From Candidatus Saccharimonadales bacterium (GTDB lineage Bacteria; Patescibacteriota; Saccharimonadia; Saccharimonadales; JANWIN01), in assembly GCA_025449905.1 (NCBI GenBank), contig JANWIN010000008.1, forward strand, positions 4,642 through 68,641: a stretch of DNA of 64,000 nucleotides, written 5' to 3'. How positions within the stretch are numbered: the stretch's first letter is position 1; each line of letters begins with the position of its first letter. The position numbers and the translations under genes are program-made. Under the pieces are notes generated by a model that had not been told where the DNA came from, made no database searches, and worked only from the letters and a program-made list of their open reading frames with translations. This document shows positions 3,488 through 40,781 of the stretch, one piece after another.

Positions 3488-4669
3488 ATGGCAGATTTTG
3501 ACCGCTCAAAGCCGCACATCAACGTTGGAACTATGGGTCACGTTGATCACGGCAAAACTACATTAACCGCTGCAATTACCGCAGTGCTAGCTAAGAAATT
3601 ACCTAGTGATGTGAACAAACCAGTTAGTTATGACCAAATTGACAATGCACCAGAGGAAAAAGCTCGGGGTATTACTATTGCGACCTCTCACCAGGAATAC
3701 GAGAGTGAAAAGCGTCACTACGCCCACGTTGACATGCCCGGACACGCCGACTATGTCAAGAACATGATTACCGGTGCCGCCCAGATTGATGGCGCTGTAT
3801 TGGTTGTTTCAGCTGCTGATGGCCCTATGCCGCAAACACGCGAACATGTTCTTCTTGCCAAGCAAGTTGGCGTACCTTCTATCTTAGTTTTCATGAACAA
3901 GATGGACCTGGCTGACCCTGAACTAGTTGAACTAGTAGAAGTTGATATCCGCGACCTGCTTAAAAAGTACGAATTTGACGAAAAAGCACCTATCATCAAG
4001 GGATCTGCGACTAAGGCTCTTGAAGGCTCGGCTTCTGACGAAGATGCCATTATGGAACTTGTAAAGGCTATGGATGACTACATTCCAGAGCCTAAGCGTG
4101 AGCTAGACAAGCCGTTCTTAATGCCAATTGAGGACGTCTTTTCAATTAAAGGTCGCGGTACTGTTGCTACCGGCCGTGTTGAGCAAGGCGTTGTTAAAGT
4201 TAACGAAGAAGTTGAAATTGTTGGCCTACGCGACACTAAAAAGACGGTTGTTACTGGTGTAGAAATGTTCAAGAAGAATCTCGACCAAGGCCAAGCTGGC
4301 GACAACGTTGGAGTTCTATTACGCGGTGTTGAGCGCGAAGACATCGAGCGGGGCCAAGTTTTGGCTAAGCCCGGAACCATTACGCCGCACACCGAATTTG
4401 ACAGTGAAGTCTACATTCTGACCAAAGAAGAAGGTGGACGACACACACCATTCTTCAAGGGCTACAAGCCACAGTTTTACTTCCGAACTACTGATGTAAC
4501 GGGTGAAGTTGAACTTCCAGAAGATAAAGAAATGGTTATGCCGGGGGACACAATTACCTTTAAAGTGAAATTACTTCAACCGATTGCTATGGAACAAGGA
4601 TTGCGCTTCGCCATCCGCGAAGGTGGCCGAACCGTCGGCGCTGGTGTCGTTACCAAGATTAACAAATAA
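3488..4669 (+). CDS. tuf: translation elongation factor Tu
   Basis: [22 protein letters not shown] motifs; 393 aa; strong SD (taggagaaa). Confidence 0.97.
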
Positions 4670-22081: not shown

Positions 22082-22237
22082 TTGACAAAGTTATTATTTG
22101 TAGTATATTAGTTTTTATGTCTAAAATGACAATCAACAATTCATTTTGGTTTACCGACACAACTCGTGGCGGTTTATTCCGTATGTTCTAAGATTGTCTA
22201 AAACCTATCGAAGAAGCCGCCACCAAGGCGGTTTTTT
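22082..22237 (+). promoter_or_regulatory. candidate leader-peptide attenuator upstream of the 72-aa ORF and trpS
   Basis: TTGACA (22082-87), 16-nt spacer, TATATT (22104-09), 7 nt, then a 24-codon ORF 22117-22191 (MSKMTINNSFWFTDTTRGGLFRMF). GTGGCGGTTT (22166-75) can pair with AAGCCGCCAC (22214-23), which overlaps the terminator. Confidence 0.5.
22216..22237 (+). terminator. intrinsic terminator
   Basis: GCCGCC / accaa / GGCGG(T) stem-loop followed by T6. Confidence 0.6.
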
Positions 22238-22274: not shown

Positions 22275-22493
22275 ATGGATAAAGATAAAAGGCCTAGGGG
22301 CATGATGATCATACCCCCTGGAGGAACAGAAGGTCTGATAGAAGACAAAGCAGAAATTGAGCGTTTAGATGCAGGACAATCTCAAAACCAAGATTTAGAA
22401 GTTGGAACGGAGCAAAATATTGGTACTGTCGCAACCAAAGCAGAGGCAGACAGATCTAATTCCCCATATTTCGTAAAACGTGCAGGAATTTAA
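22275..22493 (+). CDS. hypothetical protein (72 aa)
   Basis: ORF with upstream aaggaa RBS-like sequence; polar low-complexity protein; no motif. Confidence 0.3.
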   Translation: MDKDKRPRGMMIIPPGGTEGLIEDKAEIERLDAGQSQNQDLEVGTEQNIGTVATKAEADRSNSPYFVKRAGI

Positions 22494-22508
22494 GATATAA
22501 TTACAACA

Positions 22509-23768
22509 ATGAGTAAACCGGTAATACTTACAGGTCTTAGAGCTAATAACGACCTCCACCTAGGTAATTATTTGGGGGCCTTGCTACCTATGGTTGACAT
22601 GGCTAACAAACAAGCTGGCGAGCATCAAATTAATCTGTTCGTACCTGATTTACACAGCTTTACGACACCAATCGACCATTCTAAGCTTTACCAGCAAAGC
22701 ATTGATAATGTGAAAGTCTTTGTAGCTACCGGACTTCATATCGGACACGAAAATGTACACATATACCGTCAAAGTTTTATTCCAGCCCATTCGGAGCTGG
22801 CTATCATCCTTAATAGCTTTGTGGGCGTTGGTGAAATGGAGAGAATGACACAATACAAAGAAAAGATAGCAAGTTCAGTTGAAAAAGAAAGAGAGTTCGC
22901 TAAACACCTAGAGGAGCTATTCAGAAAAAATATAAATGAAAATAACGAGGTAAATGATGCAGTGGAAAGGATGACACAGTATAAGAAAAGAATTAAAATA
23001 AATGAAAAAAAATACTTAAGCCAACAAAAATATATGCAAAGTCTATCTGACATTGTTTTAGAAACAGAAAAAGGTGACATTTTCAACATTGAAGTCAAAT
23101 CAAAAAAAGATATTGGACCATCGGTAGGCCTTTTTGATTATCCTGTGTTGATGGCGGCTGATATTCTGCTTTATGGCGCCTCATATGTGCCCGTTGGCGA
23201 TGATCAGACTCAGCATCTAGAATTTACCCGCAATATAGCTGAGCGAATGAATAAAAAGTTTGGCGAGCTGTTTGTTGTGCCAAACCCTGTTGCTGAGCAG
23301 CACAAATTCTTTGGAAAAGACCAAGGTTTGCGCATTCGCGACCTTCTAGATCCAAATAAAAAGATGAGCAAATCCGACGACACCGGCAAAGGTGTGATTT
23401 TCTTAAGTGACAAGCCCGAAGAAGCAGCAAAAAAAGTAATGTCAGCTACTACGGATAGCCTTAATAAAATTGCACTGGATTTTGAGAAGCAACCTGGAGT
23501 TAGTAATTTATTGCAAATACATGCCTTGCTTTCTGGCGAAACTCTAGACGCCGTCACTAAACATCACGGTGGGGAAACAAACTACAGCGACCTTAAAAAA
23601 GAGGTGGCAGAACAAGTTAAAGAGTTCTTAAATGACTTCCAGGCAAAACTTTCAGCTGTAAACGAGCACGAAGTTATCAAAAAGCTGGAAGCCAGCGAAG
23701 CTGAAATGAATAGACAAGCCAACGAGACCCTAGCCAAGGTTCAAAAAGCCGTAGGCCTGCGCAAATAA
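22509..23768 (+). CDS. trpS: tryptophan--tRNA ligase with a large internal insertion
   Basis: Class I HIGH-type motif (NDLHLGNYLG), KMSKS (NKKMSKSD), YPVLMAADIL. 419 aa, with a ~80-aa K/E/N-rich insert. Confidence 0.9.
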   Translation: MSKPVILTGLRANNDLHLGNYLGALLPMVDMANKQAGEHQINLFVPDLHSFTTPIDHSKLYQQSIDNVKVFVATGLHIGHENVHIYRQSFIPAHSELAIILNSFVGVGEMERMTQYKEKIASSVEKEREFAKHLEELFRKNINENNEVNDAVERMTQYKKRIKINEKKYLSQQKYMQSLSDIVLETEKGDIFNIEVKSKKDIGPSVGLFDYPVLMAADILLYGASYVPVGDDQTQHLEFTRNIAERMNKKFGELFVVPNPVAEQHKFFGKDQGLRIRDLLDPNKKMSKSDDTGKGVIFLSDKPEEAAKKVMSATTDSLNKIALDFEKQPGVSNLLQIHALLSGETLDAVTKHHGGETNYSDLKKEVAEQVKEFLNDFQAKLSAVNEHEVIKKLEASEAEMNRQANETLAKVQKAVGLRK

Positions 23769-27099: not shown

Positions 27100-27128
27100 T
27101 TGACACAGTAGTAATCCAGTATTATAAT
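27100..27128 (+). promoter_or_regulatory. consensus sigma70 promoter
   Basis: TTGACA (27100-05), 17-nt spacer, TATAAT (27123-28). The ATG of the next gene is 9 nt after the -10 box, with no SD. Confidence 0.6.
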
Positions 27129-27137
27129 AGGTTTATT

Positions 27138-27548
27138 ATGGCAAACGAAACTTTATCGCCAATGACTGACGAAGTAGCGCATTTGCGTCAGCAGCTTGCT
27201 GATACTCTAACTCATTTAGAAGAGCATCCAGAAGATGATAGTTCACTTTCTTTGTCACTATATGACTTAAGGAAAGAGGTTAGACACTATGATGCGGTTG
27301 TAAGCGGAGAAATAAGCTCCTTTCAAGTAGACTCACTTGCTGATATCCCTAAAGTACTAGTAGACGTGCGCCGGGCACGACACATGAGCCGAGTAGAGTT
27401 ATCGCAAGCGTGGGGTCTCTCAGAAGAGAATCGTCAGAGGCTTCTTGCTGATGAAGAGAACTTTTATGCCGGAATGTCTTTAGCGGGAGTTGTTTCTGCC
27501 GCAATAATTCTAGGCGCTGAGCTTAAAGGCGATATAAAGGTAGAGTAG
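27138..27548 (+). CDS. XRE-type helix-turn-helix protein (136 aa)
   Basis: C-terminal half RRARHMSRVELSQAWGLSEENRQRLLADEEN fits an HTH_XRE pattern. Confidence 0.5.
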   Translation: MANETLSPMTDEVAHLRQQLADTLTHLEEHPEDDSSLSLSLYDLRKEVRHYDAVVSGEISSFQVDSLADIPKVLVDVRRARHMSRVELSQAWGLSEENRQRLLADEENFYAGMSLAGVVSAAIILGAELKGDIKVE

Positions 27549-35096: not shown

Positions 35097-35822
35097 TTGA
35101 GCGAGGTATTTTTGGGAGTTTATAGCAATACACAAATTAGACAAGCAATTAAAGAAGGTCATATCGTCCTTCACCCTTACAATGACAAAAACATTGCCGG
35201 TAGTAGCGTTGACGTTACCCTAGGCTATTATTTCTATCGTTTGGAGCGGCCAAGTGAGGGCGGTTTTTATAATCCATTTGATGAAAAAGCTGTTAAATCA
35301 TACTTTCGCGGTGGACCATACCACGCCGAGCCGCATGAGAAATGGGTTAAGCAACATGGCCGGCAATTATTTAAGAATATCCCGCCAAAACATCCAATCA
35401 TTGTCTTAAGGCCAGGCGAGCGCATACTTAGTCATACTCATGAATTTATAGGCATTCGAGCCCCCGGCACTAGCACTATGCAAGCCCGCAGTACCTGGGG
35501 TCGCAACGGCGTCTCGGTTTGTTTAGACGCCGGGTGGGGTGATCCTGGTTATATAAACCGCTGGACGATGGAAGTTTATAATATGAACCAATATGAAAGC
35601 GTTGTACTGCCTGTTGGTGAACGAGTCGCGCAAATGGTCTTCTACGAAACAGGCCCCGTTAGCAGCGAGTACACCAAGCTAAGCGGCAAATATCAGAGCC
35701 GCCCCAGCCAGGATCTGCAAACCATTATTAAGACTTGGTCGCCGGAACAGATGCTCCCCCGAGCTTACAAAGATAGTCGCCAGATGCCTAAAATCATCAA
35801 AGGCTTGAAAGGCTACAAGTGA
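35097..35822 (+). CDS. dcd: dCTP deaminase / dUTPase-superfamily protein
   Basis: GSSVDVTLG and an ERVAQMVF-type C-terminal segment. Start uncertain: TTG 35097, or TTG 35112 which has GAGG 5 nt upstream. Confidence 0.7.
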   Translation: MSEVFLGVYSNTQIRQAIKEGHIVLHPYNDKNIAGSSVDVTLGYYFYRLERPSEGGFYNPFDEKAVKSYFRGGPYHAEPHEKWVKQHGRQLFKNIPPKHPIIVLRPGERILSHTHEFIGIRAPGTSTMQARSTWGRNGVSVCLDAGWGDPGYINRWTMEVYNMNQYESVVLPVGERVAQMVFYETGPVSSEYTKLSGKYQSRPSQDLQTIIKTWSPEQMLPRAYKDSRQMPKIIKGLKGYK

Positions 35823-38167
35823 AACCGGCAAGTAAGAGTAGGGGTGCATTTATTGTTATTGAAGGTACTGATGGCTCGGGCAAAGGTACGCAATTTGAAT
35901 TATTGACCGAAAGGTTACGCCAAGCCGGACACCAAGTAGAGACTTTTGATTTTCCTCGTTATGATGAGCCTTCCAGCTACTTTGTGAAGGAGTACTTAAA
36001 TGGTAAATACGGCAGTTCGGAAGAGGTTGGACCTTATACCGGTTCGCTATTTTACGCGATTGACCGCTACCAAGCCGCACCGCAAATCAGGCAGGCGCTA
36101 GAAGAAGGCAAGGTTGTGCTGGCTAATCGTTTTACCGGTTCAAATATGGCTCATCAGGGTACTAAGTTTGCTTATCCTGAAGAGCGGCGCGGTTATTTTA
36201 TCTGGCTGGATAATTTGGAGTTTGAAATGCTGGGAATCCCGCGGCCGGACAGGAGTTTTGTGCTGCGCGTGCCAGCCGAGATTGCCCAGCAATTAATTGA
36301 TAGAAAGGCCGCCCGCAGTTATACCGATAAGAAGCGTGACTTGCACGAGGCTGATTTTAAGCACTTAAAGCTTTCAGTTGAGGTTTATGACGACCTATGC
36401 CGATTATTCCCGCGTGATTTTCAGCGCCTTGACTGTGTGCGCAGCGGAAAAATGATGACTAAAAGCGTAGTTGCCGACATGATTTGGAAAAATGTCGAGC
36501 CGTTGTTACCCGAGCCGATGCCTATTACCAAAGGAACTAAACCCAAGCCGCAGGTTGAAAAGCCAAAAAATCCTTATATTCACAAGACGAACGCCGGCTA
36601 CGAAATAACTTCGGAGGGTAAGCGCTTTTTGGAAGAAGCCGTAACTAATGCCAGTGGTAATGTCTATGGTTTTAAGGACAAGTTGACGGCTACAACCATA
36701 GCAGCAGCTATGGCGCGATTGAGTCGCCGCGGTGATGATATGCGCGTAACTATTTTGGACGAGTTTGCCGCCACCGAAGGCAAAGATGAAAAGCTGCTCC
36801 AGCGGGTTATAACGGCTTATGGTGATGACTCTGTTCAACAGTTGGTTGGCCAGCATATAGTTGTTGAGAACGCCTCTAACCTGCTTATAAAGAAACTGGA
36901 GTGGGGCAGGCTGGCCGCCTATCTGGAACAATCGACGCGCTACATTTATTTCGATCAAAAAGATAACGAAGGACGATACAAATATCATATCCCGGAGCAT
37001 TTTGACGAAGATACACTCCAAGTCTATGTCAAAGTCATGGATGAAATCTTTGACACTTATTCAGTTATTGTCAGAAAGGCTACAGACTATGTGCGTACTA
37101 ACTCTAAAGTTCCAAAAGATGAGCAAGATGTTGCCTGGCAAGGGGCGACTCGGGCCCAAGCTTGTGACGCCGCTCGCCATGTTCTGCCCGTAGCCACCAC
37201 TGCCACCGTGGGTATTTATGCTTCAGGCCAAGCTCTAGAAAGTCTTATCATGCACCTAATGAGCGAAGAGTTCGTTGAAGCTCGTATAACCGGACAGAAA
37301 CTCTTAGACGAAGGTCGGCAAATGATTCCAATGTTCTTGGAGCGAGCCGATAAGCCGGATCGCGGCGGCGCAGCCATTGCTTATCGAGCCAACACCAAAC
37401 AAGGCGTAAAAAAATTAGCCGAGAAATATTTACCTAATAATTTTGGTCAGCATGAAGCGCCGGTTAGGCTAACAGGCGTCTGGCCTCGCAACGAAGTGGA
37501 CTTAGTGCCAGATATGCTCTATGAGCACAGTAATTTATCGTTAGACGAGATTAAGGATTCAGTTAGTAAATGGTCATATGATAAAAAAGCTTCGGTGCTG
37601 CTGGCCTATATCGGTGAACGCTTAAACCGGCGCCACAAGCCCGGGCGAGCACTAGAAAAAGCCCATTACAGCTGGGATTTGGTTTGTGATTACGGCATCT
37701 TTCGAGATTTACAACGTCACCGCATGGTTGATGATTTAGAGTGGCAGGAGTTAACCCCTCGCTATGGCTATGAAATACCAGAGCTTATTGAAGAAGCCGG
37801 GCTAGCTGAATTATATGAAAAGTGCTTTGACATGAGCTTGGCGCTTCATAGCAAGTTACAGGCAGCTGGCTACGGGGTTGAGGCGCAATACGCTACGCTT
37901 TTGGGGCATAAAATGCGGTGGAAAATGACTTTTAATGCCCGCGAGGCATATCATTTTGTTGAACTTAGGACTTCGCCGCAGGGACACCCTGGCTACCGCA
38001 AACTAACTCAACAAATGTATGAAAAGTTAGCAGAAGTACATCCGCTACTTGCTCAGGGTATGAAGTTTGTCAATCAAGGCGAAGACGAAGAATTAACGCG
38101 TTTGGCGGCTGAAAAGTATACACAGTTTAAGCTTCAACAGATTGATCAGGCTGAGAAGAAACGCTAG
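35819..38167 (+). CDS. fusion protein: thymidylate kinase (N-terminal) plus tandem ThyX-like flavin-dependent thymidylate synthase domains
   Basis: N-terminus FIVIEGTDGSGKGTQ (Tmk). C-terminal ~550 aa carries two ThyX-like halves: WGRLAAYLEQSTRY and QRHRMVDD...TPRY, and YHFVELRTSPQGHPGYR. GTGA overlap with dcd. Confidence 0.6.
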   Translation: MKPASKSRGAFIVIEGTDGSGKGTQFELLTERLRQAGHQVETFDFPRYDEPSSYFVKEYLNGKYGSSEEVGPYTGSLFYAIDRYQAAPQIRQALEEGKVVLANRFTGSNMAHQGTKFAYPEERRGYFIWLDNLEFEMLGIPRPDRSFVLRVPAEIAQQLIDRKAARSYTDKKRDLHEADFKHLKLSVEVYDDLCRLFPRDFQRLDCVRSGKMMTKSVVADMIWKNVEPLLPEPMPITKGTKPKPQVEKPKNPYIHKTNAGYEITSEGKRFLEEAVTNASGNVYGFKDKLTATTIAAAMARLSRRGDDMRVTILDEFAATEGKDEKLLQRVITAYGDDSVQQLVGQHIVVENASNLLIKKLEWGRLAAYLEQSTRYIYFDQKDNEGRYKYHIPEHFDEDTLQVYVKVMDEIFDTYSVIVRKATDYVRTNSKVPKDEQDVAWQGATRAQACDAARHVLPVATTATVGIYASGQALESLIMHLMSEEFVEARITGQKLLDEGRQMIPMFLERADKPDRGGAAIAYRANTKQGVKKLAEKYLPNNFGQHEAPVRLTGVWPRNEVDLVPDMLYEHSNLSLDEIKDSVSKWSYDKKASVLLAYIGERLNRRHKPGRALEKAHYSWDLVCDYGIFRDLQRHRMVDDLEWQELTPRYGYEIPELIEEAGLAELYEKCFDMSLALHSKLQAAGYGVEAQYATLLGHKMRWKMTFNAREAYHFVELRTSPQGHPGYRKLTQQMYEKLAEVHPLLAQGMKFVNQGEDEELTRLAAEKYTQFKLQQIDQAEKKR

Positions 38168-38422: not shown

Positions 38423-38574
38423 TGATAACCTCTAAATCACTATGGGTTTTAACCAGAAGCACTCTTCGAGTCTCCTACTTATCCTTCAAGGGCTGTGCTT
38501 CAAATTGGTTGAAGCCTGAGCGTACAGATACGTTTTGCACAGCCCCACAATCAGGCCTCAACGCCTGATTTTTT
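38423..38574 (+). promoter_or_regulatory. Leu-rich leader peptide attenuator candidate
   Basis: TGaTAACCT (38423-31). ORF 38442-38519 MGFNQKHSSSLLLILQGLCFKLVEA. Alternative pairings 38490-98/38537-45 and 38514-19/38551-56, then a terminator. Confidence 0.6.
38551..38574 (+). terminator. intrinsic terminator 17 nt upstream of the leuA-family start
   Basis: TCAGGC / ctcaac / GCCTGA followed by T6. Confidence 0.7.
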
Positions 38575-38591
38575 AATTTAAGGAGAACTAA

Positions 38592-39761
38592 ATGAGTGAA
38601 GTTAATCTAACAATTTTTGATACAACCTTGCGTGATGGAGCACAATCGTTGCCTGAGCAAAATCAGTTTCCGAAAGGAACAAAGGCTGATATTGCCGGTG
38701 AAATAGCTGCTTTGGGCATAGGTGTCATAGAAGCAGGATTCCCTAGAACAGTTGGCGATGCAGACGAAGTACGTATGGTGTCTAAGCTAGTGGGTAACAA
38801 TGAATATGCTATTTCTGAATGGCGCAATAACCACGCTGTTGGCAAGGTAGGCGCTACCCCAACTATTGCGGGGCTTTGCCGAACAACCCGCAGGGACATT
38901 GATGTGGCCTGGGAGGCTGTACAGGATGCTATATTCCCGCGAATTCACACATTCGTGTCGACAGATAGAGAGCACATGGCAGCAAAATTTCCGGGCAAAA
39001 CACCAGAAGAAGTACACCTAATGGGTCGAGATGCAGTTATGCACGCCAAATCATTGATGATTGACAGGCCCCAAGCAACAGTGGAATTTTCGGCAGAGGC
39101 GGCTAGTACCACAGAAGAAAAATACTTAGAAGGAGTAATGAAGTCAGCTGTTGATGAAGGAGCTGATGTAATTAATGTACCCGACACCGTTGGCCAGCGT
39201 AATCCATTCTGGATGCGTGATTTCTATAGTCGAGTAATTGATTGGGTAGTAAGGGCAAATCCTGATGTAACAATTTCAGCTCATAACCACAACGATCTAG
39301 CTATGGCAACTGCCAATAGTTTTAGCTTGGTTAGTGCAGCTGCCGAATACGCCAAAATACAAGCTAAGCCAATAAATATTCAAATAGAAACTACTATTTC
39401 TGGTCTGGGTGAACGAGCTGGGAATGCTGATGTCTTCTCAGTTGCAGCCAGTATTTTTAAATTTGCCGAAGATCTCCCAGTTGATATTTATTGGCGTTTT
39501 AACCCTGAAAGATCTGTAAAAACCGCCAATCGCGTACTAAGTATGGCTGGTATCGAGGTCCACAGGCAAGCTCCGGTTGTTGGCCGAGATACGCTAGTAC
39601 ACCGTTCTGGAATTCATAGTGATGGTGTCATAAAAGGGGGTCATCGTATATACACCCCCCATGACCCAACCTTCTGGGGCCAAGGCGCCGATGCTATACA
39701 CGAAGAAGGTAGGTATCAGGGTAAGAGTGGACGAGCAGCCATTGCCCGAACATCCCAATAG
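38592..39761 (+). CDS. short 2-isopropylmalate / citramalate / homocitrate synthase family protein (HMGL-like)
   Basis: DTTLRDGAQS, HNHNDLAMATANS, GLGERAGNADV, HRSGIHSDGVIK. 389 aa with no LeuA C-terminal regulatory domain; strong SD aaggag. Confidence 0.8.
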   Translation: MSEVNLTIFDTTLRDGAQSLPEQNQFPKGTKADIAGEIAALGIGVIEAGFPRTVGDADEVRMVSKLVGNNEYAISEWRNNHAVGKVGATPTIAGLCRTTRRDIDVAWEAVQDAIFPRIHTFVSTDREHMAAKFPGKTPEEVHLMGRDAVMHAKSLMIDRPQATVEFSAEAASTTEEKYLEGVMKSAVDEGADVINVPDTVGQRNPFWMRDFYSRVIDWVVRANPDVTISAHNHNDLAMATANSFSLVSAAAEYAKIQAKPINIQIETTISGLGERAGNADVFSVAASIFKFAEDLPVDIYWRFNPERSVKTANRVLSMAGIEVHRQAPVVGRDTLVHRSGIHSDGVIKGGHRIYTPHDPTFWGQGADAIHEEGRYQGKSGRAAIARTSQ

Positions 39762-39762
39762 C

Positions 39763-39897
39763 TTGACATACCCCTATAGATATTTAAAATACTATCTATG
39801 GCTCAAACAACAATTATTAAAATTATTCGAGATTCCGTCTAGCGCGGTAGAGCTTTTATTTGTCAACAAACAGCTCCGCGCAGGGGCTGTTTTAAAT
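39763..39897 (+). promoter_or_regulatory. Thr/Ile-rich leader peptide attenuator candidate
   Basis: TTGACA (39763-68), 16-nt spacer, TAAAAT (39785-90), 7 nt, then ORF 39798-39842 MAQTTIIKIIRDSV. Mutually exclusive hairpins 39842-81 and 39868-92. Confidence 0.5.
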
Positions 39898-39909
39898 ATG
39901 AGGAGGACG

Positions 39910-40137
39910 ATGGAAGGTCAAATAAGCGAACCTGTTTCTAGCCAAGAACCAATAGTAGACCCTGAAGTCTATAGGCTACTTGAAATTGGTGAAAAACTTA
40001 AAGCCTTTGGCCTATTAAGTCGAGAGATAAGACTTGAGCTTATACACGGTGCGCCTTGTGGCGAACAATGGAGTGTCAGGCTAATGCGCTGGTACCCGAA
40101 ACCAACGGTTGACGAAACATCTGAATCTAATCTATAA
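39910..40137 (+). CDS. hypothetical protein (75 aa)
   Basis: ATG 39910 preceded by AGGAGG at 4 nt. The longer ORF-track frame (39661) runs through the leuA-family 3' end and the leader region. Confidence 0.45.
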   Translation: MEGQISEPVSSQEPIVDPEVYRLLEIGEKLKAFGLLSREIRLELIHGAPCGEQWSVRLMRWYPKPTVDETSESNL

Positions 40138-40139
40138 TA

Positions 40140-40234
40140 TACTGGTTACCAGAGACAGTGGCGGCGAAAGCTTAATTATGCCACCGAGGTAGAAACAACT
40201 TTTCTATGTCTTTGGTATGCGCCAAAGATTTTTT
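40140..40234 (+). promoter_or_regulatory. rplJ (L10) leader-like structured 5' region with terminator-type hairpin
   Basis: GTGGC...GCCAC helix (40159-40185). TCTTTGG/tatgcg/CCAAAGA plus T6 (40209-40234), 16 nt before the rplJ ATG. L10-leader autoregulation is known in other bacteria. Confidence 0.45.
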
Positions 40235-40250
40235 AATTTTAAGAGGTAAG

Positions 40251-40781
40251 ATGGCTTTAACGAAAGAAAAAAAGCAAGAAATTATCGAGCAGGTTGCGAG
40301 CTATCTCGATAATACTAAGATGACTGTAATGGCTCACTATGATGGTGTATCGGTTCAGGCTATGCAGGATCTGCGTCGTCAAATTAAAGATTCAGGGACT
40401 AGCGTAAGGGTCATCAAGAATAACCTGTTTGTCAAAGCCCTGGATAAAAACGACAAATTTAAGGACATTGAACGCAAAGTCATTGAAGGACAGCTGTTGT
40501 TTGCCTTTAATCCTGATGACGAGGTTGCTCCGGCTCAAGCCCTGGCCGGTTTTGCTAAAAGTGGTCAAAAAGTTGACTTTGTCGGTGCTATTACAGAAGA
40601 GGGCCAATTTGTTGAGGCTGAAGACGTCAAGTCAATGGCCAACCTACCGTCCAAAGAGCAACTGCGCGGCCAATTGGTTGGCCTATTTAGTTCACCGCTC
40701 AGCGGTTTGGTAAGTGTCTTAAACGGTAATGCCCGAGGTGTTTTGCAGGTACTGCAAGCTCGCGCTGAATCGATAAGCTAA
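40251..40781 (+). CDS. rplJ: 50S ribosomal protein L10 (uL10)
   Basis: MALTKEKKQEIIEQV... is the canonical N-terminus; SD aagagg. The ORF-track start 40206 is rejected. Confidence 0.94.
   Translation: MALTKEKKQEIIEQVASYLDNTKMTVMAHYDGVSVQAMQDLRRQIKDSGTSVRVIKNNLFVKALDKNDKFKDIERKVIEGQLLFAFNPDDEVAPAQALAGFAKSGQKVDFVGAITEEGQFVEAEDVKSMANLPSKEQLRGQLVGLFSSPLSGLVSVLNGNARGVLQVLQARAESIS

Follow-up and report, generated by a model that had tools for sequence, protein, structure and literature searches.

A probable leaderless isoleucine attenuator at the head of a putatively exchangeable gene slot in Saccharibacteria

The window analysed here is a 64,000-nucleotide (nt) stretch of contig JANWIN010000008.1 (assembly GCA_025449905.1, positions 4,642 to 68,641) from a Candidatus Saccharimonadales bacterium, in which a short unit at positions 39763-39909 follows the stop codon of a LeuA-like gene. 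We read this unit as a leaderless, ribosome-mediated leader-peptide transcription attenuator with charged tRNA-Ile as its signal, a class assignment to which we give a probability of about 0.8, and it is probably a real and functional one. That it actively regulates the adjacent gene for a 75-amino-acid (75-aa) protein is somewhat less secure and still the better bet. Because a homologous unit precedes ilvA in five relatives, we place it with the isoleucine (Ile) attenuators of the ilv type. The anatomy of the unit, its conservation, the covariation of its arms, its Ile specificity and its linkage to ilvA in relatives are all computed results. Its features are the following.

39763-39768 and 39785-39790, + strand: sigma-70-type promoter, TTGACA, 16-nt spacer and TAAAAT, an 11/12 match to the consensus
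39797-39798, + strand: predicted transcription start site (TSS), at the ATG or 1 nt before it, placed from the spacing between -10 box and start codon
39798-39842, + strand: leader mini-ORF (open reading frame) MAQTTIIKIIRDSV, 14 codons, from the ATG at 39798 to the TAG at 39840-39842, read from the sequence
39813-39818 and 39822-39827, + strand: regulatory Ile codons, ATT ATT (codons 6-7) and ATT ATT (codons 9-10), with AAA between them
39842-39847 and 39851-39854, + strand: 5' arm of hairpin H1, the antiterminator, GCGCGG and AGCU around a UAG bulge, from local fold and duplex energy
39857-39867, + strand: loop motif TTATTTGTCAA between the H1 arms, with TTATTTGYCAAG-like motifs in relatives
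39872-39881, + strand: 3' arm of H1, AGCUCCGCGC, overlapping the 5' arm and loop of H2, from fold and pairing covariation
39868-39899, + strand: hairpin H2, the candidate intrinsic terminator, AAACAGCUCC (39868-39877), loop GCGCA, GGGGCUGUUU (39883-39892), then U39893 and AAAUAU
39901-39906, + strand: Shine-Dalgarno (SD) sequence AGGAGG of the downstream ORF, 3' of H2, unpaired in the dominant structures and not sequestered
39910-40137, + strand: ORF of the 75-aa protein, the presumed regulated cargo, with gene-like codon usage and distant homologues

The promoter begins 2 nt past the stop codon of the LeuA-family gene and is one of only six matches of at least 11/12 in the whole 64 kb, all of them on the gene-rich + strand, against 1.6 ± 1.1 in shuffled sequences. 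The mini-ORF opens 7 nt past the -10 box, and its lack of an SD is best read as the sign of a leaderless mRNA; we infer a TSS at or beside the ATG from the fixed 6-8 nt spacing between -10 box and ATG. The mini-ORF has the composition by which attenuator leaders are recognized, with four Ile codons in two tandem pairs within 14 codons. The 5' arm of H1 begins at the final base of its stop codon, whereas H2, with a 10-bp stem and a U-rich tail, is a candidate terminator between the leader ORF and the downstream gene; positions 39868-39881 are common to both hairpins, which are thus mutually exclusive. Compared as local folds, as the earlier note on this DNA had proposed, H1 and H2 reach -15.1 and -14.9 kcal/mol, respectively. 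As a duplex H1 reaches -16.3 kcal/mol, against -9.0 ± 2.5 kcal/mol for shuffled 5' zones, of which 2/300 were equally good. The earlier note, made from the sequence alone, had described the promoter, the ATG 7 nt past the -10 box, the SD-less 14-codon mini-ORF and the H1 arms at these same coordinates and had held that the two hairpins cannot coexist, all of which the sequence bears out; its H2 (39868-39874 with 39886-39892) was correctly positioned but drawn too short.

In the mechanism that we propose, transcription would start at or beside the ATG of the 14-codon ORF. With Ile-tRNA plentiful, a ribosome would reach the TAG at 39840-39842 and its footprint would cover the 5' arm of H1 (39842-39854); with that arm masked, the 10-bp H2 (39868-39892) would form and the transcript would end in the U-rich tract. 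With Ile-tRNA scarce, the ribosome would stall at the ATT-ATT pairs (39813-39827), about 14 nt upstream of the H1 arm, and the free arm would pair with 39872-39881, using up the 5' half of H2 and allowing transcription to proceed. Read-through would enter the 75-aa gene and would probably continue towards the L10 leader and rplJL, with no intervening terminator. A model of this kind, with a ribosome either at the stop codon or stalled on the leader codons, had been outlined earlier, and every element of it is now backed by comparative data, namely the geometry over 17 loci, the covariation of H1 and the linkage to ilvA.

Related loci were gathered by exact-protein look-ups and by alignment-based scans with the LeuA-like protein, which has thousands of homologues, the nearest of them from Saccharibacteria; a single-protein scan of genome contigs with the same protein returned nothing, and an alignment-based scan was required. 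This search of related genomes for the arrangement of mini-ORF and hairpins, another proposal of the earlier note, brought up homologous units in 16 further Saccharibacteria loci, which makes 17 loci with the window and 15 distinct sequences. The unit lies between the LeuA-like stop codon and a small ORF in L001, L002 (= L161), L003 (= L004), L007, L009, L164 and L012, and likewise after the LeuA-like stop in L014 (= L085), L023, L028, L029, L030 and L166; it stands elsewhere than after the LeuA-like gene in L170 and L017, and is also present in L172. The LeuA-like proteins beside them have no more than 51-70% identity to that of the window. In many relatives the order of genes is a tmk-thyX fusion, the LeuA-like gene, a small ORF, the L10 leader, rplJ and rplL.

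The anatomy of these units is regular. All 16 of the tabulated units have TTGACA (exact in 15/16), a spacer of 16-18 nt and a -10-like hexamer, and L172 shows the same by eye. From the -10 hexamer to the start codon there are 6-8 nt in 15/16 units and 10 nt in L029, none of the units has an SD for its mini-ORF, and in nine loci the -35 box and the TGA that ends the LeuA-like gene overlap. The homologous mini-ORFs in the 16 other loci are 13-20 codons long. Every homologous unit has a terminator hairpin of -14 to -20 kcal/mol with a UUUU(U)AAU-type tail, and in most of them an SD follows immediately past the terminator.

The genes behind the unit link it to a pathway. It precedes IlvA in five relatives (L017, L023, L028, L030 and L170), together with RidA in three of these (L023, L030 and L170). 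In L028, IlvA, the biosynthetic threonine ammonia-lyase, follows the unit directly (TIGR01124, 596 bits vs a cut-off of 411); in L023 the order is unit, RidA (TIGR00004, 108 bits vs a cut-off of 106) and IlvA (TIGR01124, 672 bits), in L030 it is unit, a 78-aa ORF, RidA and IlvA, and in L170 unit, RidA and IlvA, recognized by the Pfam domains Ribonuc_L-PSP and PALP with Thr_dehydrat_C. In L017 the unit lies after rplJL and directly before a homologue of threonine dehydratase (BLASTP E-value 3e-53). In both L017 and L170 the unit is away from the LeuA-like gene yet adjoins ilvA. An Ile-only leader ahead of the Ile-specific entry enzyme is the arrangement expected from the logic of ilv attenuators, and in these five loci the gene behind the unit acts in the metabolism of the amino acid that the leader would sense, whereas in the window the 75-aa ORF stands there instead. 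The ilv reading is also supported because sister leaders, rich in Leu or in Leu/Val/Ile, precede leuA-like and ilvB-ilvN genes.

The signal encoded in the leader peptides is specific. Across 16 units, Ile accounts for 70 of 250 leader residues (28%), compared with 6.7% of the window proteome (P = 6e-25), whereas Leu is depleted (1.6% vs 9.8%) and Thr is not enriched (7.2% vs 5.7%). Of the combined Thr/Ile sensing suggested previously, only the Ile part is retained; Thr codons were rejected as part of the signal because there is no Thr enrichment across units. Outside the Ile run and the arm-encoded C-terminus, the peptide varies freely. In most units the final Ile-Ile pair falls around codons 9-11; in L028 it is at codons 5-6. 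The antiterminator arm starts 14 nt past the last Ile pair in the window and 7-27 nt, mostly 10-16 nt, past it in the other units with a defined arm, where its position relative to the stop codon ranges from -13 to +14 nt, and the two antiterminator arms are 27-36 nt apart across units. This spacing is what one would expect of an arm that stays just clear of a ribosome halted at the Ile codons but is covered by one at the stop codon.

Evidence for the antiterminator was sought at the level of pairing. MAFFT alignments of whole units were structurally inconsistent, so no covariance model was built, and a duplex swap test and an anchored alignment of the arms were used instead. Duplexes between a unit's own stop zone and terminator arm average -14.9 kcal/mol, compared with -12.1 ± 0.6 kcal/mol for swapped partners, and 0/5000 permutations match. 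In the anchored alignment of 14 distinct units, 70% of the cells are paired vs 58 ± 2.5% when shuffled (0/500) and the covariation score is 0.28 vs 0.13 (0/500); this alignment was fitted to the predicted duplex, which favours the structure and inflates the pairing. Controls with slid registers reach at most 53% paired and a covariation score of 0.147. There are nine distinct arm pairs, including GCGCGG/CCGCGC, CUGUGCGGGUC/GGCCCGUACAG, UGCGGGCC/GGCCCGCA, UGCGG/CCGCA, GCGGG/CCCGC, UUGCGGG/CCCGCAA, GUGCGG/CCGCAC and UUGCGGGAU/AUCCCGCAA; the pair GCGAGUGGU/ACCACUCGC belongs to L028. The unit thus has the kind of antiterminator by which attenuators are known, one that shares bases with the terminator and covaries.

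Several observations weigh against our interpretation, the fitted arm alignment among them. The fold of the whole leader is unexceptional compared with shuffles (z = -0.33), that of the 63-nt core having z = -1.96; because the fold of the window alone could not settle the matter, the case beyond chance rests on conservation in the 16 other loci. The U-tract of H2 is short: it has four U's, and three of them could pair with the AAA at the foot of the stem. L003, L014, L028 and L029 share this feature, and in them the unit is likewise conserved; a four-U tract followed by AAU appears normal for terminators of this clade, with that of the window at the weak end. One of the homologous units, in L170, has no clear antiterminator, and one distant homologue of the 75-aa protein (P0122, locus L171) is encoded before rplJ without the unit. 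The TSS, termination at H2, Ile-dependent read-through and the 75-aa gene as functional target are what we infer from the arrangement, and this too counts on the negative side. Finally, none of IlvA, RidA, IlvB and IlvN is encoded in the 64-kb window, and with no cognate biosynthetic gene beside it, it is hard to see what physiological purpose the switch serves in this genome.

The question of cargo therefore turns on the slot between the terminator and the ribosomal protein operon, which holds or borders two further features.

40109-40138, + strand: second promoter, that of rplJL, an 11/12 match to the consensus
40131-40244, + strand: L10 leader of rplJL (Rfam RF00557, 66 bits), the 3' boundary of the variable slot

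By codon usage the 75-aa ORF resembles a gene, with a log-likelihood ratio of 0.30 per codon compared with 0.41 ± 0.14 for real genes, a value of 0.30 never being reached by out-of-frame segments. The earlier note had given it an AGGAGG SD and the rplJ leader downstream, both of which stand, and had called it an orphan, which it is not: exhaustive phmmer searches return two distant homologues, P0122 (45% identity, E-value 2e-5) and P0123 (39%, E-value 4e-4), both similar to it in size and sharing the motif DxEVYRLL...RLxL...PxGxxWS. An exact look-up of the 75-aa protein gave no record and a word-based homology search returned the query alone, Pfam and PADLOC offered no credible family for it or for the other small ORFs after units, and its AlphaFold single-sequence model (pLDDT, the predicted local distance difference test, of 76) had no Foldseek match in the PDB at E <= 0.001. 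The + strand from 39910 to 40130 has no terminator-like site. We also asked whether the 75-aa ORF and the sequence around it derive from ilvA or ridA and rejected this, as no similarity to either was found; 39700-40300 has no remnant of IlvB or IlvN either.

The contig that encodes P0123, L172, repeats the arrangement of the window: TTGACA, 16 nt, TATGAT, 7 nt and an ATG opening MAQSIIIAIIDVHASAR, then the GCGCGG arm, a near-identical terminator, an SD, a 76-aa ORF, the L10 leader and rplJ. Nucleotide identity between the window and L172 is 68% in the unit and 73% in the L10 leader, whereas identity at third codon positions is at saturation, 36% for the small ORF and 39% for rplJ. Given this difference, the unit is best regarded as under purifying selection in the lineages that have it upstream of the small protein, and this speaks against its being no more than a fossil. 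Such a fossil, left when a former ridA-ilvA attenuator lost its genes and now non-functional before unrelated DNA, is the alternative that survives best, and we consider it improbable. It would account for the absence from the window of ilvA and ridA, which are yet found downstream of the unit in five relatives, and for a slot past the terminator that has been swapped for unrelated sequence even among close relatives. It does not sit well with a promoter, start codon, Ile pairs, two arms and terminator that are all intact, with conservation of the unit in at least nine lineages that have no ilvA at the locus, with the 68% identity to L172 while neutral positions are saturated, or with the compensatory changes in the antiterminator arms, which imply continued selection.

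The small ORFs after the units are mostly unrelated to one another. Between L007 and L009, identity is 90-100% over the LeuA-like gene and the unit, drops to ~35% past the terminator, where the segment swapped for unrelated sequence lies (3899-4559 in L007), and recovers at the L10 leader. One family of slot ORFs is common to L009 and L164, with a weak relative in L012, and has a non-synonymous divergence (dN) of 0.19 and a synonymous divergence (dS) of 1.67 (dN/dS ~0.12), whereas the adjacent LeuA-like gene has a dS of 0.31 between L009 and L164; by these values the slot ORF of the two loci is a real coding gene whose coalescence is older than that of its flanks. The pattern suggests cassette-like replacement of the slot by recombination between conserved flanks, and the attenuator would accordingly head an exchangeable slot, filled by ridA-ilvA in some genomes and by small proteins in others. 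In L009 (3929-4297) and L164 (3934-4305) the conserved frame begins at an ATT that lies 6 nt past GGAG and well upstream of the first ATG or GTG, and this ORF may have a non-canonical ATT start.

A tentative extension of the attenuator reading, which we hold to be possible and somewhat less than even, is that an Ile attenuator was kept after the local loss of ilvA and re-used as a sensor of Ile-tRNA shortage that drives swappable, fast-evolving small proteins. It fits because slot ORFs are swapped between flanks that are 90-100% identical while one of their families has a dN/dS of ~0.12, and because unit and 75-aa family have stayed together despite deep divergence. The small slot proteins may be starvation or host-interaction factors, and read-through may feed the adjacent rplJL operon.

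A further alternative shifts the main product away from the downstream gene, to the short RNA left by termination, to the 14-aa peptide, or to both; these would act in trans, and cis control would be secondary. There is precedent in rnTrpL/peTrpL of Sinorhizobium meliloti, where RNA and peptide derived from an attenuator act in trans, so that the attenuator does more than control the biosynthetic gene beside it in cis (PMC6614838, PMC7298713). This would explain why the unit is conserved whatever lies downstream and why its cargo is swappable, and it could give a function to the loop motif TTATTTGTCAA at 39857-39867, for which the cis model has none. The peptide is, however, not conserved outside the Ile run and the arm-encoded C-terminus, and the constant spacing of Ile codons, arm and stop codon is a specific requirement of cis attenuation. 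We regard a mainly trans-acting unit as a little less probable again than a fossil; it is compatible with cis attenuation and not exclusive of it, and the Sinorhizobium system is only a lead for the retention of the unit without ilvA, with no evidence of a trans target here.

A plain arrangement, in which the hairpin terminates the LeuA-like gene, the promoter serves the next gene and the mini-ORF and H1 are coincidence, could appeal to the position of the hairpin ~105 nt past the LeuA-like stop and to the unremarkable z-score of the leader fold, but it is very unlikely: a terminator downstream of the promoter makes it self-defeating, it is already contradicted by the recurrence of mini-ORF, Ile enrichment, geometry and covarying antiterminator in 17 loci, and the units of L017 and L170 are away from the LeuA-like gene but beside ilvA. 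Least likely of all is a leader of the erm/cat/bmrCD type that responds to antibiotics, switching on a resistance or stress gene when a drug stalls the ribosome. A short, hydrophobic, Ile-rich peptide with alternative hairpins and variable small genes downstream would suit it, but the downstream SD (39901-39906) lies unsequestered 3' of H2, a U-run follows the hairpin in all units, the run of Ile codons is the sole conserved peptide feature, homologous units precede ilvA and ridA, and sister Leu or Trp units precede the leuA-like gene and trpS.

The loop motif is an observation in its own right. TTATTTGTCAA recurs in TTATTTGYCAAG-like form in L012, L029, L030, L014, L166 and L172, has no role in the hairpin model, and might serve for pausing, for protein binding or for pairing in trans. 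An antisense promoter formed from the minus-strand TTGACA of the motif was rejected for want of a usable -10. Rfam at gathering score has no match in 39763-39909, and at E <= 10 there are only chance-level matches to small RNAs; the unit is matched by none of the covariance models of leader families (Thr_leader, Leu_leader, His_leader, Trp_leader, T-box and others). A search for tRNA and transfer-messenger RNA found none at the locus, and a pattern search for ATTATT..GCGG..CCGC found no second Ile-type unit inside the window.

The layout of the unit is nearly identical to that of Escherichia coli trpL. The trpL leader peptide has 14 codons with the regulatory codons at 10-11; the window has 14 codons with a tandem pair at 9-10, four more codons, a stop and an arm at the stop. 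The E. coli leader differs in the amino acid sensed, in having an SD and in its 1:2 pause hairpin, and the two are not homologous. The leaders of ilvGMEDA and ilvBN in E. coli and of ilvBNC and leuA in Corynebacterium glutamicum (PMC11857589, PMC3890552) are alike in a run of end-product codons within a short ORF, in exclusive antiterminator and terminator structures and in an arm placed for masking by the terminating ribosome; in relatives the unit precedes ilvA. Compared with these branched-chain operon leaders, the unit of the window is predicted to be leaderless and its cargo is not a biosynthetic gene; it is also Ile-only, whereas the ilvGMEDA leader is multivalent (Ile/Leu/Val), and far shorter than ilv leaders, with a 14-codon ORF, a leader of ~100 nt, two clear hairpins and no obvious 1:2 'protector' helix. 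Leaderless leader peptides have been described in Deinococcus deserti (PMC4007540), and leaderless regulatory small ORFs in mycobacteria (bioRxiv 10.1101/834739). These elements share the 5'-end start codon without an SD that is predicted for the unit here, and are proposed to attenuate genes of amino-acid biosynthesis or aminoacyl-tRNA synthetases; the unit described here is from a different phylum (Saccharibacteria, in the Candidate Phyla Radiation), and its TSS is placed by the distance from -10 to ATG.

Leader-peptide attenuation is thus a classical mechanism, and leaderless leader peptides are also already described. For Saccharibacteria and the Candidate Phyla Radiation, our searches of the literature turned up no account of leader-peptide attenuation, and the potentially interesting twist is an Ile switch with non-biosynthetic, swappable cargo. 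The 64-kb window alone has three attenuator-type units, one of the Leu type before the LeuA-like gene, the Ile-type unit, and a Trp-containing one before trpS, which suggests that ribosome-mediated attenuation on leaderless transcripts is a main readout of amino-acid supply in these regulator-poor, host-dependent bacteria. In the comparative set, ilvA, ridA and ilvBN remain under control of this kind in some Saccharibacteria, which bears on how far the different lineages are truly auxotrophic. A conserved Ile switch before exchangeable small proteins also offers a handle on how an obligate epibiont responds to the shortage of a single amino acid, a question that can be addressed in genetically tractable Saccharibacteria strains. 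If the re-use of the switch after loss of ilvA were true, amino-acid attenuation would have been recruited for non-biosynthetic cargo.

The neighbouring gene and the two sister attenuators have the following positions.

38592-39761, + strand: LeuA-family (HMGL-like) gene, 389 aa (Pfam PF00682, E-value 1.5e-43)
38442-38577: Leu-type attenuator before the LeuA-like gene, with mini-ORF MGFNQKHSSSLLLILQGLCFKLVEA followed by a stop at 38442-38519
22082-22237: third attenuator-like unit, TTGACA at 22082, 16 nt, TATATT, 7 nt, and ATG at 22117 opening MSKMTINNSFWFTDTTRGGLFRMF followed by a stop

The LeuA-family protein has the catalytic HMGL-like domain only and falls below the cut-off of every NCBIfam equivalog for LeuA, CimA and NifV (best 240 vs 532 bits); it is a candidate isopropylmalate or citramalate synthase, and the Leu-rich leader points to a role in the leucine pathway. 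The Leu-type unit has the alternative pairings GGGCUGUG/CACAGCCC and GUUGAAGCC/GGCCUCAAC and a terminator at 38549-38570 with a U-run. Upstream of the LeuA-like gene, a Leu-rich leader (..LLLxLxGLCF..VEA) with alternative hairpins is found in 18/18 Saccharibacteria loci examined, and this implies that the gene is under Leu-dependent control, as judged from the leader's composition. In L013 (~1485-1690) and L020 (~3679-3880) a mixed Leu/Val/Ile leader, MVYNRVKQLVIIILGRQGLCFTMVEASEQ followed by a stop, is followed by a small ORF, ilvB (TIGR00118, 739 bits) and ilvN, and some Saccharibacteria evidently retain part of the branched-chain pathway under what appears to be attenuation. Other leader variants downstream of the LeuA-like gene occur in L092 and L015, and in L094 (3740-3880), where MTRNEVMIVMILGSKELG followed by a stop has its own terminator.

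In the third unit, a terminator lies at 22211-22237 and its 5' arm has a complement in the arm GUGGCGGUUU (22166-22175); the fold has a z-score of -3.75. Behind the unit come a 72-aa orphan ORF (22275-22493) and trpS (TIGR00233, 266 bits vs a cut-off of 177), the span from ORF to trpS being 22275-23768, and this leaderless, Trp-containing unit probably senses Trp-tRNA. Elsewhere in the window, a 782-aa ORF at 35819-38167 is a thymidylate kinase (PF02223) fused to ThyX (PF02511), a fusion conserved in relatives. A 12/12 promoter (TTGACA, 17 nt, TATAAT) lies at 27100-27140, and the ATG 9 nt past its -10 box opens a 136-codon ORF that may be a leaderless or near-leaderless gene.

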